Virus record (IMG/VR): IMGVR_UViG_3300010885_017276
Span: 32,001 to 96,000 of that record
DNA from: a virus
Strand: one strand, 5' to 3'
DNA: 64,000 bases
This document shows, in pieces, positions 8,776 through 30,008 of the stretch (the stretch's first letter is position 1; each line of letters starts with the position of its first letter). The position numbers and the translations under genes were made by a program. The notes under the pieces are model-generated. The model had not been told where the DNA came from. It saw only the letters and a program-made list of their open reading frames with translations, and ran no database searches.

Positions 8776-8988
8776 ATGAAAAAGTTTAACGAATTTGAGT
8801 GTTGGATGATTGTTCAATCTTTAGAGTTACTAGCCGAGGCTTGGAAAGTCGAAATCGACGAGACCGAGGCCAAGGGCAATAGGGCAATTTGGACAAAGGG
8901 CTACGTGGAAATGGTGACCAAGGAATTGACCGAGAAGGTCAAGGCAGGTACACTAAAACCTAGAAAAACCTACGACCACACTAAGTAG
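8776..8988 (+). CDS. first early gene, hypothetical 70 aa
   Basis: ATG at 8776 with A-rich leader preferred over the upstream GTG. Confidence 0.7.
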   Translation: MKKFNEFECWMIVQSLELLAEAWKVEIDETEAKGNRAIWTKGYVEMVTKELTEKVKAGTLKPRKTYDHTK

Positions 8989-9057
8989 TAAGCAAGCCCC
9001 CTTCGGGGGGCTATTTTAAAACAAATTTTTTAACTAATCTAATCTTATTTTAAAAGT

Positions 9058-9939
9058 ATGGAAATTCTATCCAACATTCAGAGCGGAAACGCTAACATCG
9101 AGAGTATTAAAGGCCAATTGTTTGACGTTGTCAAAGTGCCACTAGTTACTAACCTTCAAGGGTTTGACAACCCTAACAGCTTCGGGACTTACCGAGCAAA
9201 CGGAGGCGAAGCCCTAGGAGTTGTAGGTAAAGACTTCACGCCTACTCAACCTAAGCTATTATTCGAGGACTTCGAAAATTGCTTGTACGATACGGACTGC
9301 GACCTAAAGGACGTTAAATATCTAGAGTTGAAAGGCGGTCGTAAAGTAGTGTTCGAAGCCCCAATCAAAACAATGGGCTTTACTAACCTACGAGGCCAAG
9401 AGGACGAAATGATAGTTAAGATTAACTTATCTACGGGTTTCGACGGACTTACCAAGACTAGTTTGTTTATTAGCTGTTACCGAATGGTTTGTGCCAATGG
9501 TATGAAAGCTTGGAAAACCGAGTTTGCTGTTTCTTTCAAGAATACAACCGGTAACGTCGGCAAGGCTTCATCACTTTGCCAAGACATCGCCAAGGCTACC
9601 GACCAAGCTAACGACTTCGAGGCTTACATCAAGAAGCTAAATTCGTCCGAGGTTGACCAAGCCAAAGTAGATGATTTTCTTTTCAAGACTATGGGCTTTA
9701 ATCAAAAGATGTATTCAGAACTAGGTACAAGAAAGCAAAACATCTTGTCCGCTGTACAAGAAAGCATCGCCCTAGAGTTTGGACGTACCGGCTCAACGCT
9801 TTGGGGATTAGTTAACGGCATCACGCACTACACTAATCACGTAGCTAGCACCAACGACCGAAACGATTACCTTCTTACCGGAGGCGGTCTTAAGCTAAAC
9901 GATTTAGCACAAAAGGTAGCCTACGAAATGGCCTACTAG
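9058..9939 (+). CDS. DUF932/DUF945 family phage protein
   Basis: LGVVGKDF, LKGGRKV, STGFDG, RMVCANGM and TLWGLVNGITHY motifs. Confidence 0.8.
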   Translation: MEILSNIQSGNANIESIKGQLFDVVKVPLVTNLQGFDNPNSFGTYRANGGEALGVVGKDFTPTQPKLLFEDFENCLYDTDCDLKDVKYLELKGGRKVVFEAPIKTMGFTNLRGQEDEMIVKINLSTGFDGLTKTSLFISCYRMVCANGMKAWKTEFAVSFKNTTGNVGKASSLCQDIAKATDQANDFEAYIKKLNSSEVDQAKVDDFLFKTMGFNQKMYSELGTRKQNILSAVQESIALEFGRTGSTLWGLVNGITHYTNHVASTNDRNDYLLTGGGLKLNDLAQKVAYEMAY

Positions 9940-9981
9940 TATTAACCAAGCCCCTCGAAAGAGGGGTTTATTTTAACTAAT

Positions 9982-10167
9982 ATGAAAAAGAAAAAGTTTA
10001 CCGAAAAGCAAAAGGCGGTTATTGCTAGATTCCTGCAAGAACGCCACTACGATCTAAAAGAGTATAAGGCCATTGGCACTAAGCACTACAACGACGACGA
10101 AGATGTTGAAAAAATCCTTGTTGCTATCTATATGCTAAATGAATACCTTTGGATGTGGGAACACTAA
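9982..10167 (+). CDS. hypothetical early protein
   Basis: bounded by repeats 2 and 3. Confidence 0.7.
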   Translation: MKKKKFTEKQKAVIARFLQERHYDLKEYKAIGTKHYNDDEDVEKILVAIYMLNEYLWMWEH

Positions 10168-10210
10168 TTACTAACCAAGCCCTCTACGGAGGGCTTTTAT
10201 CTTATCTTAT

Positions 10211-10375
10211 ATGAATTACTATATCTTATTGCCCGTTATTTGCCTGCTGCTTCTAGTAGCCCACATCGTCTATGTTAATCGCAGAGACAAGTTTGAGTAC
10301 TTGGACTATTGTATAGCAGTTTGCTTGCTCCTAGTCCCGTTTATTTGCTTAGTCGATTGCCTGCTATGTTGTTAG
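10211..10375 (+). CDS. small Cys-rich membrane protein (54 aa)
   Basis: translated by eye MNYYILLPVICLLLLVAH...LLCC; follows repeat 3. Confidence 0.6.
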   Translation: MNYYILLPVICLLLLVAHIVYVNRRDKFEYLDYCIAVCLLLVPFICLVDCLLCC

Positions 10376-10471
10376 TAGGCCTTATCGCAGTTTGCCTGCT
10401 GTTGATTGCAGGACTTAAAAAGTAATGTTTAACCAACCCCTTCTATCCGGAGGGGTTTTATTTTAACTAGT

Positions 10472-10645
10472 ATGATTTTTATTACCACTCTTTTGATTAT
10501 CTATTACGCATTAGTTATCAGGGAAACTTTTTGCGAAAAGTATTATGCAAGCCCTATCACAACAAAGAGGGACTTTTTTTTATGTTTGATACCTTTGTTT
10601 ATGTGGTTTAAAATGCTTATCTTTGCATTAAAGAACCTAGATTAA
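10472..10645 (+). CDS. small membrane protein (57 aa)
   Basis: translated by eye MIFITTLLIIYYALVIRE...; bounded by repeats 4 and 5. Confidence 0.65.
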   Translation: MIFITTLLIIYYALVIRETFCEKYYASPITTKRDFFLCLIPLFMWFKMLIFALKNLD

Positions 10646-10691
10646 TTATTAACCTAGCCTTTCATCACGGAGGGCTTTTATCTTAACTAGT

Positions 10692-10853
10692 ATGAAAGTA
10701 GAAATCTTTGTTTTGGACTATGGCTTCGAAGCCTTAATTATTGACGGGGGTAAAATCCTGGGGACTATCTTGGGTGTAACTATGGCGAACCTTTGCCAAA
10801 GTGTATACGATGTGTACGGAATCAACATCTTTGAATTAGTTAGTTTAAACTAG
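10692..10853 (+). CDS. hypothetical protein (53 aa)
   Basis: translated by eye MKVEIFVLDYGF...; ATG belongs to repeat 5. Confidence 0.6.
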   Translation: MKVEIFVLDYGFEALIIDGGKILGTILGVTMANLCQSVYDVYGINIFELVSLN

Positions 10854-10911
10854 TTAGTTCGTGGGGGTAAAACGGGGGGACAAAAAAGTTTTCCCTTTTT
10901 TTGTAAAAAAG

Positions 10912-10943
10912 TTTGGTAGATTAAAAACTTAGTTGTATATTTG
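10912..10943 (+). promoter_or_regulatory. early sigma-A promoter
   Basis: TTTG-GTAGATTAAAAACTTAGTTG-TATATTTG. Confidence 0.85.
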
Positions 10944-11008
10944 TAGTAGAATTAAAACCTAGAAGTTAGTGCTAGGAACCTCACTAACAAAACCTAATTT
11001 ATCTTATT

Positions 11009-11149
11009 ATGAGAAATTTAGCAGATTACATTGTTCATTGTTCACTAGAGGTTATTCAATGGGACGAACATAACCGCCCTTATGAGCAAACTCCAAATGG
11101 TAAAATTTATTTGTCTAAAAGGGCTTATAGTTATTCCGTAAAAAACTAA
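11009..11149 (+). CDS. hypothetical 46-aa protein, paralog of 19300-19479
   Basis: DEHNRPYEQTPNGKIYLSK...YSVKN. Confidence 0.7.
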   Translation: MRNLADYIVHCSLEVIQWDEHNRPYEQTPNGKIYLSKRAYSYSVKN

Positions 11150-11200
11150 TTACTAATCAAGCCCTTCTTAACCGAGGGGCTTTTATTTAAACTAACTAAT

Positions 11201-11416
11201 ATGAAAAATTTATTAACTATGTCGATAGAACTTGCAATTTTAAAATTAAAAGAAAAAGAAATCCCTTGTGTTGATTCAAGGGTTAAAGGGTATGATTATT
11301 TTATTCAAGATAATGGGGATGATTTGTCTTTAACTAATGAAGAAAATGAAATAGCACAAGCGTTTGGTGTTCATTTAACTGAACAAGAAGTTATTGATTT
11401 TTCAAAAACACTTTAA
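11201..11416 (+). CDS. hypothetical early protein
   Basis: AACTAACTAATATG leader. Confidence 0.65.
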   Translation: MKNLLTMSIELAILKLKEKEIPCVDSRVKGYDYFIQDNGDDLSLTNEENEIAQAFGVHLTEQEVIDFSKTL

Positions 11417-11426
11417 ACTAACTAGT

Positions 11427-11600
11427 ATGTGCTATCCTATCTTTTGTATTGCCGTTCACTTACTAGAGGGGCGTGAGGATGAACTTGACTTGGTTTGGGG
11501 GGACGCTGCAGAAGTTTATTCTAGGTTCCTAGACAGCGAATTTAACGACCCTAACAAGTCCGAACTTGACTGCATTAATAGCTTTATGGCTAACATTTAA
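11427..11600 (+). CDS. hypothetical early protein
   Basis: AACTAACTAGTATG leader. Confidence 0.65.
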   Translation: MCYPIFCIAVHLLEGREDELDLVWGDAAEVYSRFLDSEFNDPNKSELDCINSFMANI

Positions 11601-11662
11601 AACTAACTAATCTAAACTACAAGGGGGAACAAAAAAGTTTCCCCTTTTTTTGTGCCTAAAAG

Positions 11663-11694
11663 TTTGGTAGATTAAAAACTATTTTGTACCTTTG
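11663..11694 (+). promoter_or_regulatory. early sigma-A promoter
   Basis: TTTG-N20-TACCTTTG. Confidence 0.85.
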
Positions 11695-11724
11695 ATTATT
11701 ATTAATCTTAACTTATTTTATCCT

Positions 11725-11922
11725 ATGGAAATTGTAAAAAACTTGGCTGTCTTGAATCAGCTGTCTAAAGCCTATGGCTTGGAATTTTGTAGAACCTATA
11801 AGTATTGTACGGGGGGCGATAACATTCGTGTAAACCGCTACACTTATAAAGATGATAGCTTTGTGCTAAAGTATTTTGACGGGTGTTTTTATCCGTATAT
11901 TGTTAAACTTAAAACTAACTAA
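11725..11922 (+). CDS. hypothetical early protein
   Basis: ATG downstream of promoter; KYFDGCFYPY motif. Confidence 0.65.
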   Translation: MEIVKNLAVLNQLSKAYGLEFCRTYKYCTGGDNIRVNRYTYKDDSFVLKYFDGCFYPYIVKLKTN

Positions 11923-11977
11923 TCTAAACTAGGGGCTAATCGCCCCTTTTTTTTGTGCAAAACTTTAACACTTTTTA

Positions 11978-12009
11978 TTTGGGGGTTTAGTTTTATTGGC
12001 GTATCTTTG
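11978..12009 (+). promoter_or_regulatory. sigma-A promoter driving a non-coding transcript
   Basis: TTTG-N20-TATCTTTG with no sizeable ORF downstream. Confidence 0.75.
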
Positions 12010-12014
12010 TTCTT

Positions 12015-12190
12015 GTAGGGGGGTAATGGAATGTTATCCGATACAGGTGGGCTACTGAGATACTAGCGCAAGGAGGTTCTAAGGGAACCTGCCCCGTGGC
12101 GAAGGGGGGGAGGGAGGGGTGTGACGGAGTCTACCCTATGCGTGTGTAAAAAAACACGAACCCCTGAATTGCGTTACTCTGGCAATTTTC
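12015..12190. ncRNA. candidate GC-rich structured ncRNA between convergent promoters
   Basis: at least six hairpins and a G7-A-G3-A-G4 tract. Confidence 0.55.
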
Positions 12191-12195
12191 TATAA

Positions 12196-12227
12196 CAAAG
12201 ATACGACAAAATTTTGTACTAGTCAAG
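12196..12227 (-). promoter_or_regulatory. minus-strand sigma-A promoter, convergent with 11978
   Basis: reverse complement CTTG-N20-TATCTTTG. Confidence 0.7.
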
Positions 12228-12281
12228 AAAAAAGTAACAAAGTTATCAACATTATTTTGTTAATAAGTATGCAAAAAAAAG

Positions 12282-12313
12282 TTTGGTAGATTAAAATTAA
12301 CTACCTATATTTG
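12282..12313 (+). promoter_or_regulatory. early sigma-A promoter
   Basis: TTTG-N20-TATATTTG. Confidence 0.85.
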
Positions 12314-12358
12314 TATTGTAATTGCAACGAAGCGGTTACTTTAAATTATCTTATTACT

Positions 12359-12700
12359 ATGAACAAAGTAATTTTAAACATCGGGTTAAATGTTGGGAAT
12401 GTTGAACCAACAAAACAGCTAAACACAACGCTACACATATTAACTACTTTAAGCTTTTCATTGACTAGTGTAAAGGTACACGAAAATAGCGAGTACAACG
12501 AAAACGGGGAACGCTGTCTAGTAGTTTATTTTGATACTGAATTTGACTTGACTTTAATAAGTATCTTAATTGACGCAGTTTGCGAACACTTAGAACAGCA
12601 ATGTATAGCCGTTAAATTTAACGGGGTAGGTAAACTAGTTTATGATAGTAACTACAATGGAGAACGATTTGACTTTGTAGAGAAGTACTTTAAGGACTAA
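12359..12700 (+). CDS. probable S-adenosylmethionine lyase (T3 SAMase-like anti-restriction protein)
   Basis: ERCLVV and LEQQCIAV resemble the catalytic Glu/Gln motifs of T3 SAMase (EKTV, EQDCVLV); similar size; has its own early promoter. Confidence 0.55.
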   Translation: MNKVILNIGLNVGNVEPTKQLNTTLHILTTLSFSLTSVKVHENSEYNENGERCLVVYFDTEFDLTLISILIDAVCEHLEQQCIAVKFNGVGKLVYDSNYNGERFDFVEKYFKD

Positions 12701-12759
12701 CTAATCTAAAAAGCCCCTCGATAAATTTTGGGGGGCTATTAAAAAAAAGTAAAAAAAGT

Positions 12760-12790
12760 TTTGCAGTCTAAAAAATTATAATTATATTTG
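12760..12790 (+). promoter_or_regulatory. early sigma-A promoter
   Basis: TTTG-N19-TATATTTG after a hairpin. Confidence 0.8.
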
Positions 12791-12816
12791 TCAAACAATT
12801 TAAACACATTCACACT

Positions 12817-13392
12817 ATGAACAAACTAGTATTAAAACACGACAACCACGCAGACAGCCCTAGAACTTGGTGCAATTTAGGAACAATGATTTGTTTCCAT
12901 AAACGATACGACCTAGGGGACAGCCACGGGTATTCCTCTATTGACTATTCAAGTTGGGAGCAAATGGAAAAAGACTTAATTAAAAAAGAAAATCCGGCTG
13001 TTATCTTACCTTTGTACTTGTACGACCATTCAGTTGTTACCATTAGTACAACCCCATTCAGTAATCGTTGGGACAGCGGTCAAGTAGGGTTTATCTTAGT
13101 TAGTAAGGAAACAGCCCTAGCAGATTTTGGGGGTAAAAAAGTTACAGCTAAACTAAAAGAAAAGATAGAGAGACAGCTAGAGGGAGAAGTAGAAACTTAC
13201 GCACAATTCCTAGAGGGAGACGTGTACGGGTTTTCTATTGAGGACGAAGACGGGAATCATATTGACAGCTGTTTTGGATTTTACGGGAGTGACTTTGCTA
13301 CCAACGGGATATTAGACTACATTAACCATAACTTGTTGGGGGTAACAGAAGCCGAAGTACTACCTTTGCTAGAAGCAGCCGAGATTGAATAA
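12817..13392 (+). CDS. conserved phage/conjugative-element hypothetical protein
   Basis: SPR.W.NLG, PLYLYDHS, WDSGQVG, G.VYGF and DSCFGFYG motifs of a widespread mobile-element family. Confidence 0.75.
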   Translation: MNKLVLKHDNHADSPRTWCNLGTMICFHKRYDLGDSHGYSSIDYSSWEQMEKDLIKKENPAVILPLYLYDHSVVTISTTPFSNRWDSGQVGFILVSKETALADFGGKKVTAKLKEKIERQLEGEVETYAQFLEGDVYGFSIEDEDGNHIDSCFGFYGSDFATNGILDYINHNLLGVTEAEVLPLLEAAEIE

Positions 13393-13506
13393 ACTAATCC
13401 AAACCCCTCAATAAATTTTGGGGGGTACACAAAAAAAAGTAAAAAAACATTTGGTAGATACAAAGTAATTGCATATCTTTACCTAGAATTTAAAACCCAA
13501 TACAAT

Positions 13507-13659
13507 ATGATAAACGTATATTTCGAGAGTAGCACACACGCTGAATTAGTAGCAACATTCGACAGCGAAGAATTATTTATAGCTTGTCTACCTACACTAG
13601 AGGCAGAAGCTAAAAAACAGAATATGTTTGTAACAGAACAAGTAACAACAACCCTTTAA
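13507..13659 (+). CDS. hypothetical 50-aa protein
   Basis: translated by eye MINVYFESSTHAELVATF...; downstream of a promoter-like site at 13450-13481. Confidence 0.6.
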   Translation: MINVYFESSTHAELVATFDSEELFIACLPTLEAEAKKQNMFVTEQVTTTL

Positions 13660-13687
13660 TAATAATAATAATAATAAATTAACTAAT

Positions 13688-13972
13688 ATGAAAATCGTAA
13701 CACAAAATGCAGTAACTTGTTTCCTTAATAAGGGGAACGGAACATTCAACAACACACACGTTGTAACAGAAAACGAAGTATCTAAGCTGTATCTATTCGG
13801 CAATCTAATTGCTGTACTAGAACAAGGGGTACTAAAGGTAACCAATGCAGGTTGGTTTAGCAAGACTACTAAGGAACGCTTGAACGGACTACCTAATGTA
13901 AACGTAAGGCAGTCTAAGGGTAAGTGGTACTTGAACGATAATTTTTGGGACGGAAAACTAACTACTATTTAA
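13688..13972 (+). CDS. conserved phage hypothetical protein
   Basis: GNLIA...AGW.SKTTKERLN...Q..GKWY motif common in phage early regions. Confidence 0.7.
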   Translation: MKIVTQNAVTCFLNKGNGTFNNTHVVTENEVSKLYLFGNLIAVLEQGVLKVTNAGWFSKTTKERLNGLPNVNVRQSKGKWYLNDNFWDGKLTTI

Positions 13973-14046
13973 TTTTGTATCAGAAGATTTTTGAGGGGTG
14001 TATGTACCAAGCCCCCCAAAAAGATCGATTAACTAAAACAAAAAAG

Positions 14047-14286
14047 ATGAAACAGACAATTATAATAGGGAAGTTTGAATCCTTAAACATCAAGGCAGTA
14101 ATACATTCTATAGATGAAGTATACCAAGCCGATACACACGAAGAACTAGTAGCTTTGCTAGATACCTTTGACAAGGAAGGCAAGGATTGGTTGATACTTG
14201 AGAAGACCATATTTACCCTAGAGATAACACCCAATGCATTGTTGGGGCTTATTTGGGGGAGCAACAAGGGGGCAAATTGCGAATAA
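14047..14286 (+). CDS. hypothetical protein
   Basis: ATG at 14047 with A-rich leader. Confidence 0.5.
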   Translation: MKQTIIIGKFESLNIKAVIHSIDEVYQADTHEELVALLDTFDKEGKDWLILEKTIFTLEITPNALLGLIWGSNKGANCE

Positions 14287-14413
14287 TGCAAAGTTTTGGG
14301 GGGGGCAAATTGTCTAACCCCCGTAAATTTCGATACCACCCTTGCAGAATTATCAGTAATCTAGTACTTTCATTGCGAATACAATAATGGGGGTACACTA
14401 AAAAACAGCCAAA

Positions 14414-14605
14414 ATGGGATTAACTAAGACAAAAAAGGAACAAGAACTCTATGAAAGGTACAAAAAGTATCTAGGGTACGATACAATCATCCCCCAATCC
14501 ATAGTACAAAGCTACCTAACAGACCTACAAGAACTAGTGGGGGGGAGCAAGGCTAGATTAAATCGGGGGGTACAGCAAAAAGCCTACCTAGTCTACGTAG
14601 ACTAA
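14414..14605 (+). CDS. hypothetical protein
   Basis: ORF track. Confidence 0.45.
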   Translation: MGLTKTKKEQELYERYKKYLGYDTIIPQSIVQSYLTDLQELVGGSKARLNRGVQQKAYLVYVD

Positions 14606-14622
14606 TAAATAAACTAACTAAG

Positions 14623-14802
14623 ATGAAGCAAACAATACAAGAGAAGATAGAGGTAGCAGTACTTACCGGACAAAAGAGTATAGTAGTAAACGGAATACTA
14701 GTACAATGGAAGCCCCTACACTCCCAAGTAGCTAAAAGCAAGCTAGAGGGGTACGCTAAAGAGGTAGCAAGAAAGAGTTTGGAGGGGCTGTATAGTAAGT
14801 AA
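14623..14802 (+). CDS. hypothetical 59-aa protein
   Basis: translated by eye MKQTIQEKIEVAV...; AACTAACTAAGATG leader. Confidence 0.55.
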   Translation: MKQTIQEKIEVAVLTGQKSIVVNGILVQWKPLHSQVAKSKLEGYAKEVARKSLEGLYSK

Positions 14803-15094
14803 CTAGCTGATTGTGTGCTAGTTAGAGTGGGCGGACAACCCCCACCCACGATTTGAGGGTAGGTTTCGGCTGTCGTTTTTGGGTATGTCGGATTCAAATT
14901 ACATATACACAAATTTATACAACAAACTTGATTCCCCCCACTACCCCTAGACTAACTACTCTATACTATACTAGTACTACTCGAATGTTATCTGTATTAA
15001 CTTATCTAAGGTTGGTAGTTATGGTAGGTTATGTTTAGATTAGTTTAGCTACACTCGGCAGTCTTTTTATAGTCCGGCCAAAAGTTTACCCCTT

Positions 15095-15156
15095 ATCTAG
15101 AATGATTCTAAATTTCAATAAATGTTTGGTAGTCTAGATTTAATTACATATATTTG
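15095..15156 (+). promoter_or_regulatory. Fur-box-like palindrome plus sigma-A promoter
   Basis: ATCTAGAATGATTCTAAAT (15095-15113) 11 nt upstream of TTTG-N20-TATATTTG. Confidence 0.7.
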
Positions 15157-18100
15157 TATCGGCAATGAAGCCAACGTAAAACTTAAATCACAATGAAACT
15201 AATTAATCTAAACTTAGTAAACGAATTACTAGACAACCAACACGAGGGCTACGAACTAATGGTTTACACAAAACAGCCTAACCAATCCGACTATGAACTA
15301 TCTGAATTTTTTGAACTAGAAAACATCAAGAACTTAAAATCCTTGTGTGCTAGAATACTAAAACAAATGGGGAATAAGGTAGGATGTATCGATTTTAAGA
15401 TGAACTACGAAGACACAGATTTTGACCAAGTAACAATCTATAAAAACTAATAAGATGAAAGAAGAAACCAAGAAAGAACTATTTGATTTTCTATACACTA
15501 TGGAAGACAAACTAGAGTACGACAAAACAGCCCTAGGTAAAAGACTAGGAGAACTAATAAACAAGCTACAACAAGAACTAATAAGATGAAACAAGAAACT
15601 TTTTTACTAGTAGGTTTATCCACTATTCTAACTATGGCTTTTTTTCTAGGGGGCAAAGAAAAGTCTTGTGCTAAGAGATTATTCTCGACAGCCCAACCCC
15701 AACAAAAAGAATACAAGTTTGTATCAACAGAACTACTAGCCCTAACACAAACAGACACACTAACACTTAAAACTAACTAATATGAAATCAGTACACGAAT
15801 TATCAGCAGAAGAATTACAAGAGTTAAGAAGTCGTTGGTATCATCAACACCTAGACGATGGCACTTTGGAAGAAGTTATGGAATACGACCCCGAAGATGA
15901 AGACAACGTACCTATGGATGTTGTAATAGAGTATTATGGGGCAACTTACTTTGTAGAAGAAGACTTTTGGTGTAACCTTACAGACTAACTAATATGAAAC
16001 AGATAACAATAGAACAAGCATTCAAAAAACTAGTTGAAAAGGGATTCTCAATTAGTGAACTAAAGCCAAATGAATTTTTAGTAATCGATAATGGTAAATT
16101 TGGATTTTGTGATGATGAAGACCCGTTCATCGTTGACGGAAATGATATTATAGAAATCTATCAAAACTATATTACAGACTAACTAATATAAAGTAGACTA
16201 AAAAAACTTTAAAAAAAATTTGGTAGTTACATTTTAATAACGTATCTTTGACTTATCAAACTAAAACAATTAATATGAAAACAGAAGAAGCAAAAAAAGT
16301 ATTGGAAAACGAAGGTTACTTTGTAGATAACTTATGGCAGACTTGCGATGTTACTATGAACTACGATTGCACGGAAGAAGAAGCCCAAAAAGTTTTAAAT
16401 GAAGCCCTTACAAACGAGGCAACGTATCAACAAATTTGGGAAGCAATATCCTATTCAGCAGAGAGTTTTAATTTAAAACGTAGAGACTAACTTGTACAAT
16501 TTATAACTATGAAAACATCACTAAGATTACAAGAAACAGAAACTATTGGGAGTAGTGGTTTATGCCACACACTAACCGGTACATACACCTTGGTTGGTAA
16601 GATTCAAGACACAGACCACATCCTAATTGAATGCCCCGACACACACGAACTATTTATAATCAATAACAACCTAAACCTTTACTAGAATGATTCGAGACTT
16701 TGACCAATTAAGAGACATAGCTATACAAATGGTTAATAACCTAGTGGAGCAAGGGTACATCCCAAATTGTACCGACACAGACGACAACACCGAGTTTGAT
16801 GTGCAGGATTTATTACTAGAAATTTTAATAGACAGCCTAGTACAACAAGATTGCGTTACCCCCAATGGAGTTGCTTCGAGTAGCGTAGAGTTAAAAGAAG
16901 TTAATGAAGACTATCGAATTGCTTTTATTAGTGTTGATGAAATACCCCTAGGTATCTTTGAACTACTTTATGATAAGCAACAAGAAGACAGACCTTATGT
17001 TTTGATTAATTACGATGTAACGTATGTTGATAACCTAATTTAAACTAACTAATATGAAAACAGAAATAATAAAATACATTGACGGCCACTCCGGAAACCA
17101 ATGTGAGATTTTTAGATTAACTAATACAAACGGAGAAGTTTTACACGAGAGAGATTATACATCCCAAACAGAGAATGTAGAAAATTACTTTGAGGATTTT
17201 TTAGAGCCGTTGTTTTTAGAAGCCGAGCAAAGTTTTGATAAACTAATTAGTTTGTATGATGTTGCAGATTTGCTAGAAGCTATGGCTTCGGACAAAGAAG
17301 CAGAGGAAATGCGTTCAGCCCTAAATTTAATATCTAAATTTTTTATAAAAATAATCTAAAAAAAGTTTGGTATTCTAGAATTAATAACGTACATTTGTTC
17401 AAGATTTAAAACAATAAAAGTTATGAAAGAATTAGATTTTTATGTGTATGTATTTTCAGACGGGACTACAGCACCTTTTGAAATAGCAGAAAAGATAGTT
17501 ATAGGAATATGGTGCGTTTTTAATAAATAAGACTTAAAACAAACAAATTATGATAAGATTAAACCTTTCAATCAGCAGAAGTCGTTATTTCGACAACCAA
17601 AAAGATTTAGCAGAATTTCTAGGTATCAAGAATACCTCCAAGAAAGCAATAGAGAGTAGATGTAGAGTGTTACACTTTGAAATAGAATTTTAAATTAGTT
17701 AATATGAGAACAGCATACCAATTATACCAAGTGGATTTTGTAAAACACAGCAACCGAGAACTGACTATCTCAGCTACCAATCGTAGAGGCAAGATTTTTG
17801 TAGCCGAACTACAACGTACCGATGAAAGGTATTGGCAAGGTTACACAGATTTTAGGTCTAGTGACTACAAAAATTTTAAAGCTGTTGTCCTAGAATTTTT
17901 GCAAGATTTAGTACAAGAAGCCAAGCACTATGACAATCGTTGGTATAATTTTAATTCTATGGTTCGATGTGAAGAAGGCGGAAGCAGACCACTGACTTGG
18001 GAAGAAACTGCCTATGGTAGCTTAGTCAACGAAGCCGAGCCAGTATTCAAAGGCCACGTTAAATTTAATACTAACTAATATGATCTTATCAATAGCAATT

Positions 18101-22534: not shown

Positions 22535-22897
22535 ATGAATATATTTAAAAGGACTTTAAAACTAGATGAACAAGAACAAGCTATATTTGATTTGATAGTC
22601 AGTATGGTTTCAAAAAAAGAATGCAACATCGAAATAGACCCCGATGATTTTTCTTACTTGGTTTCAATAGAAAGACTGCATTATTATTTATTGATAGATA
22701 ACTTTGGCATCCGGCTGTCAAACCACGAGTTTTTTATATCTCGGAAGTTTAGCGACAAGGTGCTAGATAAATTCAAAGATGTAATCAAAAAAGAAGTGGT
22801 AAGAAGGAGAGCAATCAAAGTAGATAGTATCTTTAAAAACGAAATGGACTTATTAACTAAAATAAACAGCAACATAAACAATGGGGAAATCAACTAA
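22535..22897 (+). CDS. hypothetical protein
   Basis: ATG at 22535. Confidence 0.65.
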   Translation: MNIFKRTLKLDEQEQAIFDLIVSMVSKKECNIEIDPDDFSYLVSIERLHYYLLIDNFGIRLSNHEFFISRKFSDKVLDKFKDVIKKEVVRRRAIKVDSIFKNEMDLLTKINSNINNGEIN

Positions 22898-23378: not shown

Positions 23379-23599
23379 TGGAGGTTTCAGAACTAATTAA
23401 TTTTTTGTCCAAATTTGAACCAAGCACTAGGGTTATGGTTAGGGGGTACGAAGGTGGCTACGATGATTTAGTATCAGCTAAATTGAAAGATGTAGTTCTA
23501 GATGTATACGATGAATGGTGGTATGGTAAAAACGAAGTATTAGAACAGGTATCAAAAGGCAATAGCAAAGAATCAATAAAAACAATTATACTAGAATGA
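23378..23599 (+). CDS. hypothetical protein
   Basis: V.ELI..L..F....RVMV.GYEGGYDD common phage motif. Confidence 0.65.
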   Translation: MEVSELINFLSKFEPSTRVMVRGYEGGYDDLVSAKLKDVVLDVYDEWWYGKNEVLEQVSKGNSKESIKTIILE

Positions 23600-23976
23600 A
23601 AAAATTATTATTTGCAGTATTACTGCTACTATGTTTGTCTGTATCCTACGGACAAGAAACACAATTCAGAAGAATCTACACAGAGTTAGCTATTACTCAA
23701 AATGGGGAAACAACCAACAGCCAAGGAGAGAATGTGATTTTCTTTAACTACGGGGGAGAAGCCGTTATCAAAATCTATCTAGCAGATGGATCTGTAAGAA
23801 CCTTTGATCAAATCACAGACCGAGACGAGGGGCGAACCAAGGGGGGTATGGGGTATTCGGGGGCTACCTACAAGGAAAGAGATAAAGACCTTACTATTTA
23901 TGTCCAGCTATTTAAAAATCAAAACTATGGGTTCAGAATTTTATTTAGTAACGGAGACATGATACAATTTTTGTAA
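23596..23976 (+). CDS. secreted hypothetical protein
   Basis: Sec signal MKKLLFAVLLLLCLSVSYG followed by Gln at +1, typical of Bacteroidota. Confidence 0.7.
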   Translation: MKKLLFAVLLLLCLSVSYGQETQFRRIYTELAITQNGETTNSQGENVIFFNYGGEAVIKIYLADGSVRTFDQITDRDEGRTKGGMGYSGATYKERDKDLTIYVQLFKNQNYGFRILFSNGDMIQFL

Positions 23977-23981
23977 AAAAG

Positions 23982-24013
23982 TTTGCACAATTAAAAAGTA
24001 AGTTATATCTTTG
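23982..24013 (+). promoter_or_regulatory. sigma-A promoter
   Basis: TTTG-N20-TATCTTTG. Confidence 0.8.
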
Positions 24014-24040
24014 CACAGAATTTAAAAACCAAAATATAAA

Positions 24041-25054
24041 ATGAAACTATTAAAAGACATCCCTACAAAACACTTTGTAGCTATTGACATCGAGACAGTC
24101 AGAATTGTAGAAAATTATGGAGACTTGTCTGACGAGTGGAAATCAGCGTGGGAGTACAAAAACAAACAATCCGGAGAAGTACCATTCTTCGAGGAATTAG
24201 CAGACTCTTGGGAAAAGACATCTTCGTTGTACGCAGAGTTCAGTAAGGTATGTGCTGTGAGCGTGGTGTTCCTATCTAAGAACGAAGATAAACTAATGTG
24301 TAAGGAGTTCTTTGGCCAAGATGAAGCCTTGTTGCTATCCCAACTTAGTGCATTCTTGAACCAAATCTCCGGCAGCAGTAAAGACTTTAGACTAGTAGGA
24401 CATGCTGCTAAGTACTTTGATTATCCTTTCTTATGCAAGAGATACATCATCAACAGCCTTTCCATACCGGCACTTCTAGACACAGCTCACCAAAAACCTT
24501 GGGAGAATAGAAACCTATGCACCAACCAAGACATTTGGAAGATGGGGGGTACGGGTGCAGGAAGCTCTCTACAAGCCCTATGTACAGCTCTAGCGATTCC
24601 AATTAGTAAAGTGGACTTAGTGGGTGATGAAGTGGGGAACGCTTACTACAGAGGAGAGGTAGAAAGAATTGCTAGCTATTGTTCCTTGGATACCATTGCA
24701 ACATTCAATGTAATCCGTAGAATCAAAGGAGAAAAGATCTTTCAGTTTGACGAAGTATCCTACCTAGACAAGAAAGTAGTAGAGGTTTCTACCGCTACTA
24801 AAGAGCCGGAAGATGTGCTGTTCCAAAAGCTGCCTATCCTACATCAGATTGTAAAAGCTGAGAGTATTCCGGATGAGGTAAAGAAAGAGTTATCCGCAAT
24901 CTTAAAAAAGAAGAAGATGACCAAGAAAGACCGAGTTATTGTAGAAGATATCTTAGTTAATCTGTACATCAACAATGAGATGTTTAAGTCAGACAGTCTT
25001 ATTATACAAGAAGCAAAAAAATCAGAAATCATATACCTTTTAGACAACATATAA
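24041..25054 (+). CDS. DEDDy 3'-5' exonuclease (PolB-exo-like)
   Basis: ExoI IDIETV, ExoII GHAAKYFDYPFL, ExoIII YCSLD. Confidence 0.85.
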   Translation: MKLLKDIPTKHFVAIDIETVRIVENYGDLSDEWKSAWEYKNKQSGEVPFFEELADSWEKTSSLYAEFSKVCAVSVVFLSKNEDKLMCKEFFGQDEALLLSQLSAFLNQISGSSKDFRLVGHAAKYFDYPFLCKRYIINSLSIPALLDTAHQKPWENRNLCTNQDIWKMGGTGAGSSLQALCTALAIPISKVDLVGDEVGNAYYRGEVERIASYCSLDTIATFNVIRRIKGEKIFQFDEVSYLDKKVVEVSTATKEPEDVLFQKLPILHQIVKAESIPDEVKKELSAILKKKKMTKKDRVIVEDILVNLYINNEMFKSDSLIIQEAKKSEIIYLLDNI

Positions 25055-25749
25055 TGGCAAATACAAAATTATTAGATTTACCAAAAATCTACGAAAACGA
25101 AGGGGGTAAGTATCCCCAACATACCGGAAAGCCTAAGCTCAGTTACTCAGCGTACACATCATTCTGTGAGGCAGCCTACAGAGGGGACTTCTTTGCTAAC
25201 TACTTCCTAGGTATCCGGAGTGAGGGTAACATCTTTACGGAGTATGGAAGCAAGTGCGGTAAGTTATTTGAAACAGATACAGACAGCTCAGACCTATCTG
25301 ACTTTGATGTAAGTGTTATCAGAGATATAGAAAGACCCCCAAATGCCTTGTATGAGGTAGAGATTGTTGTTGATAGGGGATCTTATGTTATTCAAGGGTA
25401 CATAGATAGAGAGTATCTAGATATTGAAGGCAATCTTGTAATCAGCGATTTAAAGACTGGCTCTATAGAAAAGAAAGCCAAGGACTACGCTAGTCAAGAC
25501 TACCAACAAACTACTTTATACGCCTATCAGAGAGAGTTAGAGGGGGAACATATCATATATTCAGGGGTCATCCTGCTAGATCGTAAGGGTAACGGCCAAG
25601 AAAAGTACCCTTTGAGATTAACCGGAGAGATTGAGTGGATACCTACACCTTACTCTAAAAAGAGAGCAGAGTTGTTCTTAAGTAAGTTTGATGCTACTGC
25701 TAAAAAGATTGAGGAGTATCATAAAATTTATAAAAAATATTTTGTGTAA
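25054..25749 (+). CDS. PD-(D/E)XK (RecB-family) nuclease
   Basis: LSYS, GYID, DLKTG and QTTLY motifs. Confidence 0.85.
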   Translation: MANTKLLDLPKIYENEGGKYPQHTGKPKLSYSAYTSFCEAAYRGDFFANYFLGIRSEGNIFTEYGSKCGKLFETDTDSSDLSDFDVSVIRDIERPPNALYEVEIVVDRGSYVIQGYIDREYLDIEGNLVISDLKTGSIEKKAKDYASQDYQQTTLYAYQRELEGEHIIYSGVILLDRKGNGQEKYPLRLTGEIEWIPTPYSKKRAELFLSKFDATAKKIEEYHKIYKKYFV

Positions 25750-25772
25750 TTAAAATAAAGGTTGTACCTTTG
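25741..25772 (+). promoter_or_regulatory. sigma-A promoter of the RNA gene cluster
   Basis: TTTG-N20-TACCTTTG. Confidence 0.8.
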
Positions 25773-25956
25773 CAAAATAAAATTAGTAAAAATTTATCAG
25801 TACTCCCTAAGTCAAAGTGTTATATAGCATTGGAAGTCTAAGACAAGCCAAGACTGTCTGTAAGGGGAAATCAGTAGGTAATCTGATTAAAAAAAGCTTT
25901 TGTGCATTATGGTCGAGGAGGCACTCTTTAAACAGAATCCATACACAAAAGCAATT

Positions 25957-26030
25957 GGTTTGGTAGCTCAGTTGGATAGAGCAACAGACTTCTAATCTGT
26001 AGGTCGTAGGTTCGAATCCTACCCGAATCA
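25957..26030 (+). tRNA. tRNA-Arg(TCT)
   Basis: cloverleaf; anticodon arm ACAGA-CTTCTAA-TCTGT; T arm GTAGG-TTCGAAT-CCTAC. Confidence 0.93.
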
Positions 26031-26044
26031 CAGATTAAAATAAC

Positions 26045-26392
26045 TAAGCTGTGTAAAGCGTCAGAACTTATAATCTGATAGAAGTTAAAGGCTAAACATT
26101 GAACCTTTGTAAACTAAGGAGTAGCAGACACTACATAAAAATTGGGAGAATGTCATCTTTACCAAAACCTATAATTTACATAAAGATATTTACAGAAATG
26201 TAAAATGTGTTGTTCCCTTGAGAAAGGAATATAGGAGTAACAAATATAAATGTTAACAACACAAATGAGTTCTCGGCAAGTAGTTAATGGTTGCCCTTGT
26301 GACAGGCTTAAATGTACTTACCATGGTGAATTAACTACGTGACCCTACTCTTACTAGACTCCATGTCTGTAATTGAGGGTGCTAATAACGCG
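26045..26392 (+). ncRNA. candidate large, highly structured ncRNA of unknown class
   Basis: about ten helices, two GNRA loops and two pseudoknot-type pairings; no ORF; lies between tRNA and tmRNA. Confidence 0.7.
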
Positions 26393-26444
26393 TAATATAA
26401 TTTACAAAAACATACAAAATTGTAAACTATATAACACATTAAGG

Positions 26445-26764
26445 GGGGGTGACTGGTTTTGACAGGTTACCAATAATTAATACAATCAGCCAGAGAGATA
26501 ACTGTAAACTAAGGTGAATTTTTTAAATGGCAAAAACATTTCTCGTGTAGTATCTCAAGGAGACAACGCACAAATCGAAGCTAACATGAACAAAGTATTC
26601 TCTCTATTGGGAGAAGAAGTTGCTGTAGCAGCCTAAATTCAAAGGATTTCTCTATTAGATTAAATAGAGTGGTGGAATCGTCAAGTGAGATTGACCCCAA
26701 TTAAGCTGTATAAATTGTATTAATGAACGTAATTTGGACGGGGGTTCGACTCCCCCCACCTCCA
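26445..26764 (+). ncRNA. ssrA: tmRNA
   Basis: GGGGGTG/CACCTCC-A acceptor with G3:U70; GACTGGTTTTGAC 5' motif; T arm GGGGG-TTCGACT-CCCCC; tag ORF 26529-26636 ending VAVAA*. Confidence 0.93.
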
Positions 26765-26870
26765 CAAATGTTTAACGCATGAACATACTTATTAAATTAT
26801 TAGTACTCGCTGTGCCTTTAGGGCTATCAGCAAAACCTTTAATCAGAGCATTTAAAAACAGAAACAAAAA

Positions 26871-27137
26871 ATGAAAACAATCAAAATTGACGAAAATTAC
26901 TACATTTCCAGAGAGGACAGCCACAACTTCATTCTCCGTTACAGAGAAAACAAGGTAATCACAAAAGGGGGAGAAGAAAAGGAAGTTTTTTCAGAGAACA
27001 ACTACTACTACCCCAACGTATCGGGGTGCTTAAAGAAGTACCTAGACATAACTCAGACTAATGCAAAAGATGTTAAAGATTGTATCCAAGTAACACAAGA
27101 ATGCTATGAAAAAATAAGCAAATTAAAATTTAACTAA
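26871..27137 (+). CDS. hypothetical protein
   Basis: ORF preceded by a 31-aa hydrophobic ORF (26779-26874) with ATGA overlap. Confidence 0.7.
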   Translation: MKTIKIDENYYISREDSHNFILRYRENKVITKGGEEKEVFSENNYYYPNVSGCLKKYLDITQTNAKDVKDCIQVTQECYEKISKLKFN

Positions 27138-27217
27138 TTTGCAAATATCAGATATTAATCGTATCTTTGTTCTTTAAAATTCAGCACCTCTTTCGTAAAT
27201 CGGGGTGCTTTTTTTTC
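27138..27217 (+). promoter_or_regulatory. sigma-A promoter immediately followed by a terminator-like hairpin
   Basis: TTTG-N20-TATCTTTG (27138-27169), then AGCACCTC/GGGGTGCT stem plus T-tract. Confidence 0.65.
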
Positions 27218-27249
27218 CGACATACATAACTAATAATTTTATTTTAACA

Positions 27250-28227
27250 ATGAGTATTTTTACTGAAAGAAAGAACTACAAGCCATTCGAGTATAATGGT
27301 ATTACCGACCCACTTATCAACGCTATGTGGGCAAGTCATTGGACTCACAACGAATTTAATTTCTTGAATGATGTCCAAGATTACAAAACAAAATTGTCCC
27401 CTGAAGAACAAGAGGTAGTCAAAAGAGCTATCTTGTTGACATCACAAGTAGAGGTAGCTGTTAAGTCCTATTGGTCTAACATAGGAAAGCTTCTACCTAA
27501 GCCGGAGATAGCGGACATGGGGGCTGTGTTTGGGGGAGTTGAGGTGATTCACTCAAAAGCTTACGCAGAGATTTTATCTAAGTTAGGATTAGAGGATCAG
27601 TTCAATGATATTTTTAACGAACCGGTTGTCGTAGGTAGGGTAAACTATTTGTCAAAGTATATCAACAAGATTTACAAGAATGACCACAAAAACATTTGTT
27701 ACTCCTTGGTTCTTTTCACATTGTTCACAGAGTACACAGCTTTGTTCTCACAGTTTTATACTATCCTAGGCTTTAATAGATTCAGAGGTGTTTTGAAAGA
27801 TGTGGCCAATGTTGTACAATACACATCAAAAGAAGAAAACTTACATGCTGAAGGAGGCATCGCATTGCTGAACCAAATCAGAGCAGAGCATCCGGAGTTG
27901 TTTGACCAAGAGTTTGTACAAAAGATACAAGATGAAGTTCAAGAGGCTTTCAAAGCAGAATCAGATTTGATTGATTGGATTTTATCAGGGTACGAGAATG
28001 AGTTTTTATCTCCCACAATATTGAAAGGGTACATTAAGATTAGATTAAACGACTCTCTAGTAAAAATTGGTATGGAACCGGCCTTTGATATAGATCCGGA
28101 AATAAAAGAGAAGACTTTGTGGATGGAAGAGGAAGTTTACGCAAGTGCATTGACAGATTTTTTTCACAAGAAGCCTATCGATTACTCGAAGAAAATGAAA
28201 GCATATAACGAAGAAGAATTATTTTAA
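27250..28227 (+). CDS. nrdB: ribonucleotide reductase class Ia beta subunit
   Basis: EVIHSKAY (Fe ligands and radical Tyr), EENLH, DFF C-terminus; ATG at 27250. Confidence 0.93.
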   Translation: MSIFTERKNYKPFEYNGITDPLINAMWASHWTHNEFNFLNDVQDYKTKLSPEEQEVVKRAILLTSQVEVAVKSYWSNIGKLLPKPEIADMGAVFGGVEVIHSKAYAEILSKLGLEDQFNDIFNEPVVVGRVNYLSKYINKIYKNDHKNICYSLVLFTLFTEYTALFSQFYTILGFNRFRGVLKDVANVVQYTSKEENLHAEGGIALLNQIRAEHPELFDQEFVQKIQDEVQEAFKAESDLIDWILSGYENEFLSPTILKGYIKIRLNDSLVKIGMEPAFDIDPEIKEKTLWMEEEVYASALTDFFHKKPIDYSKKMKAYNEEELF

Positions 28228-28228
28228 T

Positions 28229-29875
28229 ATGAAGAATTATTATTGGTTAAACCAAGACTCAAGAACTTTTTTGAGTAAAGATTATTTATTACCGGGAGTT
28301 ACCCCCGAAGAAAGAATACGAGAAATCGCAGACACAGCCGAAGAAATCCTAGGCATTGATGGGTTTGCAAATAAGTTCGAGGACTATATGTCTAGAGGGT
28401 TCTATTCATTAGCCACTCCAGTTTGGATGAACTTTGGGTTAGACCGTGGGTTACCTATCTCTTGCTATGGTATTGACATCCAAGATGATACTATGGACAT
28501 CTTGAGGTCAGCTGCTGAGATCGGGGCTTTGACCAAGATGGGTGGAGGGACTGCAGGATTCTTTGGTAAGCTAAGAGGTAGAGGTGCTAAGATTAAAAAT
28601 AACGGAGTTTCAAATGGAGCAGTTAGTTTTATGTCTTTGTTCCAATCTACCACAAACATAATCACACAAGGCCAAGCAAGACGAGGTTACTTTGCTGCTT
28701 ATCTACCGGTTGACCATCCGGATATCGAGGAGTTCTTACAATGCCGTGAAGAGGGCAACGCAATCCAAGATATTGCTATTGGTGTTTGTATCTCAGATGA
28801 GTGGATGGAGGCAGTAGAAGCCGGAGACAGCGATAAAAGAAAGGTATTAGCTAAGATACACCAAAAGAGAGCAGAGACAGGTTTCCCTTATATCTTCTTT
28901 ACCGGTAATGTTAACAAAAACAAACCGGAAGTCTATAAGAATAAACACATGGATATCAATCACTCTCAGATGTGTACTGAAATCTTAGAATACACAGATG
29001 ACAAAAAGAGTTTTGTTTGTTGTTTGTCCTCTTTGAACTTGTTACATTGGGATGAGATAAAAGATACAGATGCTATCGAAACTTTGGCTTACTTCTTAGA
29101 TGCAGTATACTCAGAGTTCATAAAGAAAGCAGACAATGTCCCCTTTATGGAAAAGGCCGTGCTTTTTGCAAAAGAACACAGAAGTATCGGTATTGGGGTT
29201 CTAGGTTGGCATAGCTTCTTACAATCTAAGATGATACCATTTGAGGGGCTAGAGTCTAAGATGCTGAACGCAGAGATATTTAGAACCATCAACGATAAGA
29301 GTTTGATTGCTAGTATGAGGTTGGCTACTATATATGGAGAGCCTAAGATGTTAGAAGGTTACGGTCAGAGGTTTACCACTAGACTAGCAATTGCCCCTAC
29401 TACTAGTTCATCATTTATCCTAGGACAAGTTAGTCCAAGTATCGAGCCACTACATTCAAACTACTTTATCAAAGATTTAGCTAAAGGTAAGTTTGTTTAT
29501 ATTAACCCTTACTTGAAACAGCTACTAGAAGATAAAGAACAAGACACTCCGGAAGTATGGAGAAACATTTTGTCTAAGGGAGGTTCAGTACAGCACTTGG
29601 ATTTCTTGGATGAAAGAGAAAAAGGAGTATTCAAAACCTTTGGTGAGATTAGCCAATTAGAAATTGTGCAACAAGCCGCACAAAGACAGAAGTTTATCGA
29701 CCAAGGTCAATCATTAAACCTGATGATACACCCTGATACCACACTAAAAGATGTCAATGCTTTATTCTTTGAGGCTTGGAATCTAGGTATTAAGACATTG
29801 TATTACCAAAGAAGTGTTAATATGGCTCAACAAGTAAGTCGAGATCTTATGAATTGTAGCTCATGTGAGGCTTAG
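28229..29875 (+). CDS. nrdA: ribonucleotide reductase class Ia alpha subunit (short, no ATP cone)
   Basis: PISC, SQMCTE, VCCLSS, APTTSSS, DQGQS, LYY and C-terminal CSSCE. Confidence 0.95.
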   Translation: MKNYYWLNQDSRTFLSKDYLLPGVTPEERIREIADTAEEILGIDGFANKFEDYMSRGFYSLATPVWMNFGLDRGLPISCYGIDIQDDTMDILRSAAEIGALTKMGGGTAGFFGKLRGRGAKIKNNGVSNGAVSFMSLFQSTTNIITQGQARRGYFAAYLPVDHPDIEEFLQCREEGNAIQDIAIGVCISDEWMEAVEAGDSDKRKVLAKIHQKRAETGFPYIFFTGNVNKNKPEVYKNKHMDINHSQMCTEILEYTDDKKSFVCCLSSLNLLHWDEIKDTDAIETLAYFLDAVYSEFIKKADNVPFMEKAVLFAKEHRSIGIGVLGWHSFLQSKMIPFEGLESKMLNAEIFRTINDKSLIASMRLATIYGEPKMLEGYGQRFTTRLAIAPTTSSSFILGQVSPSIEPLHSNYFIKDLAKGKFVYINPYLKQLLEDKEQDTPEVWRNILSKGGSVQHLDFLDEREKGVFKTFGEISQLEIVQQAAQRQKFIDQGQSLNLMIHPDTTLKDVNALFFEAWNLGIKTLYYQRSVNMAQQVSRDLMNCSSCEA

Positions 29876-29898
29876 TTTTATATTTAATTTTTTGTTTG

Positions 29899-29925
29899 AA
29901 CCCTCTAGAAATAGGGGGTTTTTTT
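29899..29925 (+). terminator. intrinsic terminator
   Basis: AACCCTCTA-GAAA-TAGGGGGTT plus T-tract; next promoter at 29951-29982. Confidence 0.8.
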
Positions 29926-30008
29926 ATGATAAAAAATATTTAACAAAAAGCTTGTGTATGTTAAAGAATATTTATATCTTTGCAGAGTAAAATTAAAACA
30001 TTAGAATT

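Follow-up and report, generated by a model that had tools for sequence, protein, structure and literature searches.

A 124-kb phage genome in the virus record IMGVR_UViG_3300010885_017276 carries one contiguous block in which at least ten unrelated short words, among them CCWG, ACWGT, GATC, CATG, CCATC, AGCTC, ACCGT and CTCTTC, are strongly avoided, while the same words are tolerated elsewhere in the genome. The window analysed here is a stretch of 64,000 nucleotides (bases 32001-96000 of the 124,055-bp record), and all positions below are window coordinates. The core of the block (8300..23600, plus strand) is of early type, with ~45 small open reading frames (ORFs) without assigned function, many host-type promoters and GC-hairpin terminators. 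This regional restriction-site desert is genuine, strong and conserved, and its words are rarer than base composition, Markov models, codon usage and amino-acid sequence predict. The explanation we favour, with a probability of about three in four, is selection by host restriction-modification (R-M) against short recognition words, concentrated on early, probably first-entering DNA. The evidence points to continuing, region-specific selection rather than to mutation bias or a one-off import. The principle is not new, having been established for T5 and T7-like phages according to a 2025 study (PMC12455610). Most scoring of restriction-site avoidance takes the genome as a whole, and the clade described here is an unusually clean natural example of positional avoidance.

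An earlier note on this DNA, made by eye, had described CCAG/CTGG as nearly absent from 8.8-30 kb. Counting bears this out: positions 8776-30000 hold 9 CCAG/CTGG, where a maximal-order Markov model predicts 62.2 and base composition 77.9, together with 41 CCGG and 148 CTAG. Two local counts in the note are likewise accurate, with 12 CCGG and 1 CCAG/CTGG across nrdB-nrdA (27205-29875) and 12 CTAG at 14.3-15.1 kb. The depletion also outlasts a codon-preserving shuffle. In 200 within-gene synonymous-codon permutations of 8300-24000, CCAG/CTGG occurs 4 times vs 33.7 expected (z -7.5), CATG 2 vs 21.4 (z -5.7), GATC 6 vs 31.7 (z -5.5) and CAGG/CCTG 17 vs 34.7 (z -4.4), and all four lie outside the twelve lowest words of positions 1-8299. 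This control is conservative, because avoidance itself has bent codon usage. The one-step (transition) neighbours of the depleted words, of which CCGG and CTAG had also been noted as in excess, are enriched under the same permutation: CTAG (127 vs 93.7, z +6.5), CAAG/CTTG (166 vs 134.7), CCGG (22 vs 13.4) and CCTA/TAGG (135 vs 112.4). A recurrent AACTAGTATG-type leader accounts for little of the CTAG excess, since only 7 of the 127 copies sit in it, at most 15 nt before an ORF begins, and 105 are internal to ORFs.

The minimal avoided unit is CCWG (complement CWGG). Each of the four CCAGN 5-mers, and every NCAGG 5-mer except the less depleted GCAGG (10 vs 22), is down to 1-3 copies where 11-28 are expected. 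With the 68 kb of this genome that are undepleted as the reference, the core of 15.7 kb contains 0 ACAGT/ACTGT (ACWGT, 43 expected), 6 GATC (35.5), 2 CATG (25.6), 4 CCATC (27), 2 AGCTC (18), 1 ACCGT (13) and 0 CTCTTC (14.5), and further words are avoided as well. When every 4- and 5-mer is scanned without bias for its longest site-free run, nearly all top words fall in genome 40.2-56 kb, that is, window 8.2-24 kb, with runs of 15.8 kb for ACAGT, 14.2 kb for CATG, 15.8 kb for AGCTC and 19.9 kb each for ACCGT and ACCAG. Selection by a host defence, which the note had put forward, stands as the best explanation, being strongest in early, probably first-entering DNA; the single CCAG-containing motif that the note proposed gives way to CCWG plus nine or more other, unrelated words. 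Across the clade the avoided words are of restriction type, comprising the palindromes GATC, CATG, ACWGT, CCWGG, GCWGC, TCWGA and GANTC and the asymmetric 5-6-mers CCATC, GGATG, GGTGA, GTCTC, GAGTC and CTCTTC. We take GATC, CATG, CCWGG, GCWGC, GANTC, CCATC, GGATG, GGTGA, GTCTC and CTCTTC to be classical Type II/IIS specificities.

The coding DNA of the early block carries 1.15 sites/kb and its non-coding DNA 3.54/kb, vs 12-17/kb elsewhere, and non-palindromic words are low in each orientation (CCATC 0 and GATGG 4; CTCTTC 0 and GAAGAG 0). Since both orientations and non-coding DNA are depleted, it is duplex DNA that is recognised, not mRNA or codons. These observations bear on a mutation or repair bias (Dcm methylation with deamination, or Vsr-type repair) and on a codon or amino-acid artefact as sources of the pattern. 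The top neighbour excesses, CTAG and CAAG/CTTG, are the inner-C to T products of CCWG that a mutational origin would leave. However, the A-to-G product CCGG is enriched too, the unrelated GATC, CATG, CCATC, AGCTC, ACCGT and CTCTTC vanish from the same interval, and the effect is regional, not genome-wide. An artefact of composition is countered by persistence under codon permutation and under a control with the amino-acid sequence fixed, on both strands and in non-coding DNA. The Vsr/Dcm system of E. coli involves the same word family (CCWG, CTAG, CTTG/CAAG). In the E. coli literature, Vsr repair acts genome-wide and on CCWGG-related words only, gaining CCWG at the expense of CTWG, whereas the change seen here is regional, runs in the opposite direction and includes the loss of unrelated words. 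The Vsr-type repair bias that the note had offered as its other reading is therefore abandoned, and we give bias or artefact of any of these kinds almost no weight.

Along the genome the depletion is arranged in tiers. Observed/expected ratios (O/E) were scored for CCWG, ACWGT, GATC and CATG together, with the amino-acid sequence fixed and codons drawn from undepleted genes. The upstream flank (-3000..8100) gives 168/149 = 1.13, i.e., no depletion, at a coding density of 17.4 sites/kb. The early block (8.3-23.6 kb) gives 9/116.7 = 0.08 and is ~12-fold cleared; the replication block (23.6-43.9 kb) gives 143/271.5 = 0.53 and is ~2-fold cleared, individual genes ranging from 0 to 0.97. Depletion is weak in 43900-66400, which holds three giant genes and a 950-aa gene (268/315.6 = 0.85), and the rest of the genome lies at 0.87-0.94. 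Per-gene O/E correlates with position (Spearman rho 0.77, 49 genes, p 1e-10), so the positional gradient of the earlier note holds as an overall trend. Its slope does not: the profile consists of tiers (0.08/0.53/0.85), which is the better term because slopes within tiers are not significant. At 1-7.7 kb the bias is absent, not weaker as had been stated. A ramp across the replication block is visible only when the orthologs of five genomes, which are not independent of one another, are considered jointly.

The left edge is sharp. CCWG is dense up to 8043, and the next sites occur only at 8373, 8383, 8647 and 8945; the drop in word density falls across a non-coding boundary region (7860..8670) with a terminator-like hairpin followed by a T-run and several C/G runs, for which PHROGs and Pfam give no confident ORF family. 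The second ORF of the block (9058..9939, +), a DUF932-family gene (Pfam PF06067, E 7.9e-19), has 0 of 11.7 expected sites. Only 3 CCWG sites occur in 12179-23546 and no CATG in 8221-22451. On the right side sites are regained stepwise. The pattern is thus polar, in that co-oriented replication and recombination genes directly upstream of the block are untouched and those downstream are half-cleared.

The same profile recurs in relatives. A portal-protein search returned 20 related IMG/VR loci, of which the five longest records were taken whole. The sharp upstream edge at the DUF932 gene is present in all five fully examined clade genomes (5/20 portal-matched loci): the phage of the window (G000) and G001-G004, which share ~80% portal identity with it. 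The DUF932 gene (orthologs 75-80% identical) served as the anchor for the comparison. At this gene the density in G001-G004 drops to 0.5-3 sites/kb, from 10-18 before it; it stays at 0.2-1/kb over a core of 12-16 kb, and its recovery takes a further 20-50 kb. Each of these relatives aligns to no more than 29-45% of the G000 early core, at ~73% nucleotide identity. This points to continuing selection, without which divergence of this extent would have regenerated sites. The cleared words also differ between lineages. CATG is cleared from the early block of G000, G001 and G004 and not of G002 and G003 (32/32 and 25/26); GGATG is cleared in G001-G004 and not in G000 (19/18); GANTC is cleared in G001-G003; GTCTC stands at 0/17 in G001 and in G004; and TCWGA stands at 0/33 in G002 alone. 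All of this lineage-dependent clearing is limited to the block, so clearing went on after the lineages split. Of the GATC sites of G000 that have an orthologous position, G001 keeps 0/103, G004 0/90, G002 17/103 and G003 19/106. Single-base differences form the largest class among the lost sites (59/103 in G001, comprising 39 transitions and 20 transversions).

The comparison with relatives also decides against a mosaic origin, in which 8-44 kb would have been imported from a lineage with genome-wide avoidance and would be ameliorating slowly. The sharp left edge, the known exchangeability of early regions and the small alignable share of the core are what such an import would leave. Yet the same borders are found in five genomes at ~73% identity and lineage-specific clearing is confined to the block, the GC content of the block equals that of the rest (0.35 vs 0.345), and its orthologs have diverged as far as those elsewhere; an import is accordingly most improbable. 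The note had further suggested that normal word frequencies flag recently acquired segments, citing gene 42573-43793 and an AT-rich stretch at 52-56 kb. This fails for the gene (20/22.9 = 0.87, undepleted), a DNA repair exonuclease and the final gene of the plus-strand arm. It has a conserved syntenic ortholog in each of G001-G004 (71-77% amino-acid identity) with 8.2-11.4 CCWG+ACWGT per kb, near plateau, and simply lies at the relaxed end of the arm.

Under the R-M explanation, host enzymes would select against their own short words in the DNA that is needed before phage counter-measures act. Point substitutions, for the most part transitions, would erase sites where they stand and so produce the excess of CTAG, CAAG/CTTG, CCGG and CCTA. 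With ordered entry, the physical genome end, placed near 8.07 kb, would come in first, possibly as part of a long terminal repeat made up of the initial ~7.5 kb. The early genes, with their many promoters, would be transcribed rightwards by host RNA polymerase, and an early function would next weaken restriction while the larger part of the other DNA has yet to be exposed. Ordered entry is favoured because, in five genomes, the upstream co-oriented genes are untouched and the downstream ones half-cleared, and because rightward promoters crowd the block. The promoters follow the Bacteroidota-type pattern (an A-tract, then TTTG, 17-21 nt and TAnnTTTG): 14 of 23 matches on the plus strand lie at 10.6-27.1 kb, where ~3 per strand are expected (20 shuffles). 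The small-ORF block also has a recurrent leader, AACTAACTA(A/G)TATG, and an excess of CCCC/GGGG due to its GC-hairpin terminators.

The polarity of the profile likewise bears on a reading in which the whole genome enters at once and time of need, not order of entry, sets the tiers. Cuts in the early block would then block expression of anti-restriction or repair functions, and cuts elsewhere would be repaired (through ligatable Type II ends and UvsX-type recombination) or forestalled. The tiers do match gene-module borders, with no significant slope within a tier in G000; a recombinase, exonucleases and helicases are among the gene products of the phage (PHROGs/Pfam); and its circular assembly, which closes through a 123-bp overlap identical at both record ends, is compatible with permuted ends. 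On the other hand, the difference between the upstream helicase/UvsX/GroEL block (1.13) and the downstream block (0.53), found in all five genomes, needs an extra timing assumption. When one genome enters alone, cutting it at any point is as a rule fatal, and a step in contig depth at 8.0-15.6 kb is left unexplained. We consider this reading unlikely, though it is the chief competitor of ordered entry.

The depth step is seen in two metagenome runs. In the first (X1), a contig at 8073-15614 has a depth of 10.8 vs 4.3-7.5 in its flanks; in the second (X2), contigs over 7744-15570 have 8.0-9.4 vs 4.5-6.4. The step is 1.5-1.8-fold over ~8.0-15.6 kb, the values being means of contigs, in which molecule ends are invisible, and not of reads. 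A collapsed terminal repeat of ~7.5 kb would give such a step, which hints at the ~7.5-kb segment from 8073 as a candidate long direct terminal repeat. A 37-nt element occurs twice at 89% identity (8545-8581 and 15091-15127, repeat family D16), once towards each end of the raised-depth segment. The partial or linear contigs of G003 and G006-G009 (loci L020, L009, L010, L015 and L018) stop within the early block, at 2.4-15 kb from its left border. Such breaks suggest that high strain-level variability, or a change in depth, disrupts assembly in this region. Contig ends in the relatives lend no support to a physical genome end at the border, because partial contigs of four relatives run beyond it.

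Several points weigh against the R-M explanation, and above all against its entry-order component. Within no tier of G000 is the slope significant (p 0.27, 0.08 and 0.64), and steps at module borders fit temporal classes as well as they fit order of entry. The start of the block is less clean than its interior: 8.07-15.6 kb has 17 CCWG vs 2 in 15.6-23.5 kb, the first ~4 kb being the less clean part, which reverses a simple rule that the earliest DNA is the cleanest. The putative physical genome end at ~8 kb has to be judged from assembled contigs; four partial relatives' contigs continue 2.4-7 kb past the border before breaking inside the early block, and a segment common to co-occurring strains would be another way to obtain the depth step. 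Late genes are oriented opposite to the proposed direction of entry. As regards the enzymes, the avoided words are candidate recognition sites of the host, and the specificities assigned to them are putative. The early ORFs give no hit to a known anti-restriction family such as Ocr, ArdA or ArdB/KlcA (Pfam E<=1e-3, PHROGs 1e-5). Finally, the 'plateau' baseline regions in the relatives were picked by eye, and the more distant phages phi4:1 and G005 have little or no regional desert.

A more specific and more tentative proposal, which we would hold at somewhat less than even odds, treats the three-tier desert as a sequence-only record of stepwise delivery in a clade of phages that is uncultured and has no kinship with T5. 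The terminal repeat from ~8.07 kb would enter first, ~15 kb would be naked, an early ORF would provide broad anti-restriction, the next 20 kb would come in at the switch-over and the rest would be protected. The anti-restriction function in such a scheme would neutralise many Type II/IIS enzymes and not CGCG/GCGC cutters, a part of the proposal that is again possible rather than probable. If stepwise delivery is true, regional deserts could reveal entry polarity, genome ends, the restriction repertoire of hosts and new anti-restriction genes. For the clade at hand the desert yields predictions without culture on the first-entering end, the true genome end, the restriction specificities circulating among hosts and the location of a broad anti-restriction gene, and it provides a simple way to scan metagenomic phages for their leading regions.

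The early block encodes several very acidic small proteins (15782-15988, 16687-17043, 18380-18700 and 19023-19289), with pI 4.1, net charges of -16 to -19 and up to 29% Asp+Glu. Their charge pattern is that of DNA-mimic anti-restriction proteins, and they match no family in Pfam or PHROGs. A tandem array of four to five mini-gene units (ORFs of 46-61 aa) lies at 9963-11208, its terminator hairpin and leader recurring in every unit (repeat families D5 and D6). Of the few CCWG sites remaining in the early block, 8 fall in this array (10032-10758), which may for that reason be a younger insertion.

The number and variety of the avoided words help to separate R-M selection from self-avoidance, in which the early block would have become resistant to sequence-preferring nucleases that the phage itself makes early to degrade host DNA, later DNA being spared by timing. 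Such a process would likewise yield a regional and polar pattern, and in T5 the pre-early genes trigger host DNA degradation, as reported in a preprint (bioRxiv 10.64898/2026.04.02.716235). At least ten unrelated words, in sets that differ between close relatives, are better fitted by a changing panel of host enzymes, and PHROGs and Pfam find no nuclease family among the early ORFs. Self-avoidance is thus very unlikely. A polymerase injected with the virion, as in crAss-like or N4-type phages, was considered as well and is unsupported: the DFDxD virion-polymerase motif is absent from the 9 ORFs of >=900 aa, and in a PDB search none of the three giant proteins of the window matched the virion polymerase of phi14:2 (6VR4).

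Among known systems T5 is a close parallel. Its terminal pre-early block, devoted to host takeover, enters first and is free of sites that are tolerated elsewhere, and the early-block desert of this phage is alike in its lack of words that the remaining genome tolerates. According to the 2025 study, first-step-transfer DNA of T5 lacks the EcoRI sites tolerated elsewhere, and gaining an EcoRI site there renders the phage sensitive (PMC12455610). T5 is said to carry its early genes in a long terminal repeat, which the depth step makes possible for this phage too. The same arrangement of early genes is found in SPO1. Unlike T5, with which it has no homology, this phage clears at least 10 words of 4-6 bp over ~15 kb and then has a half-cleared tier of 20 kb; two-step transfer, an injection stop signal and a terminal repeat are features of T5 that in this phage would be hypothetical.

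T7-like phages offer a second parallel. In the T7-like Murciavirus, Type I motifs count only where they lie in the region injected first, and bioinformatic surveys are said to have ignored site position although only first-injected DNA may matter (both from PMC12455610). As in this phage, the restriction effect is sub-genomic and motifs outside the leading region are tolerated. Host RNA polymerase reads the early genes of T7-like phages in the direction of entry, to which the rightward host-type promoters of this phage may correspond. The Murciavirus case concerns one bipartite Type I motif and is experimental, whereas that of this phage is a compositional imprint involving many short Type II/IIS-like words. 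Unlike in T7-like phages, the structural genes of this phage point the opposite way and no Ocr/ArdA-type gene was found with PHROGs and Pfam.

In conjugative plasmids the leading region, the first DNA to enter, carries anti-defence genes, and depletion of restriction targets has been proposed there. A survey of 1751 plasmids describes leading regions as 'not consistently depleted' in 4-8-bp palindromes (PMC13478746), in contrast to the ~12-fold depletion of the early block. The literature searches made, to which this negative is confined, brought up the T5/T7-like and plasmid work and, for Bacteroidota or crAss-related phages, no account of a regional desert of several words.

Genome-wide avoidance, by which short palindromes fall below composition in phages, is seen in this phage as well for CGCG and GCGC, the main finding being regional tiers instead. 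Against Markov expectation the whole G000 genome has 2 CGCG vs 16 and 9 GCGC vs 31, and both words are lost genome-wide in G000-G004. Among 6-mer palindromes, AACGTT (0), GAATTC (0) and CATATG (1) compare with 42 from composition (Markov 15-23), and GGATCC occurs once in the whole G000 record. GATC and GGCC are both at 0 genome-wide in G001 (131 kb) and G004 (107 kb). G005, at 59% portal identity, has 1 GATC, 0 CCGG and 0 GGCC genome-wide, yet has no regional desert. Phage phi4:1 is unusable as a parallel: its analogous small-ORF block has a lower GC content and most apparent depletions vanish against Markov expectation, only GGCC (1 vs 13/9.4) and a CCATC-free run standing out. It carries several methyltransferases.

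The phage of the window is a tailed phage of a freshwater Bacteroidota-type host, and the runs that contain its sequence are labelled freshwater metagenome. Its nearest cultured relatives are the Cellulophaga phages phi4:1 and phi17:2, which are distant (39% portal identity), and megablast of the region against named phages gives matches of only 41-107 nt, i.e., no close named relative. PHROGs and Pfam scans with the ORF map resolve two arms: a plus-strand arm, from window -2.1 kb to 43.8 kb, and a minus-strand structural arm with terminase, portal and five giant virion proteins. No methyltransferase was found by PHROGs (151 ORFs) or Pfam (86 ORFs, being those of the window other than 16 already named by PHROGs). 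In the plus-strand arm, the part up to ~8 kb encodes a helicase, a UvsX-like recombinase, PhoH, GroEL, tRNA-Met and thioredoxin (PHROGs/Pfam); the flank inside the window (1..8050) takes in the end of the UvsX-like gene and the genes listed after it. The replication and nucleotide-metabolism block (23600..43900, +) contains an exonuclease, tRNA-Arg, a transfer-messenger RNA (tmRNA), nrdB, nrdA, a helicase, a dNMP kinase, a DNA polymerase and, in 42573..43793, the repair exonuclease discussed above. The structural arm starts with three giant virion-protein genes (43931..63535, -; 1917, 2571 and 2001 aa; PHROGs virion structural protein matches), which the 950-aa gene (63538-66390) adjoins; the four were counted together in the scoring of 43900-66400.

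Some further features of the sequence are of separate interest. The sole nucleotide matches to named phages are two stretches of the early block, in neither of which Rfam detects an RNA family. One (17653-17759, 107 nt) shows 81% identity with positions 4013-4118 of Cellulophaga phage phi14:2, and around this numbering the phi14:2 record has an early, highly transcribed non-coding region (bioRxiv 10.1101/2020.03.07.982082). The other (17189-17229, 41 nt) is 97.6% identical to a stretch of the crAss-like phage cr115_1 annotated as tRNA-Arg. A full-length tmRNA gene, missed by ARAGORN, lies at 26445-26767 (+) in an ORF-free gap adjoining tRNA-Arg (Rfam RF00023, 93.7 bits, E 1e-35). The 2571-aa giant virion protein (49742-57457, -) contains a RadC-like domain at residues 1531-1637 (PDB 2qlc, E 2e-9; PHROG 'DNA repair protein'); as part of a virion protein, this domain may enter along with the DNA. 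In the undepleted upstream block, a full-length GroEL-type chaperonin (3834-5375; PHROG 5725, E 1e-128) has PhoH, a thioesterase and thioredoxin as its neighbours.

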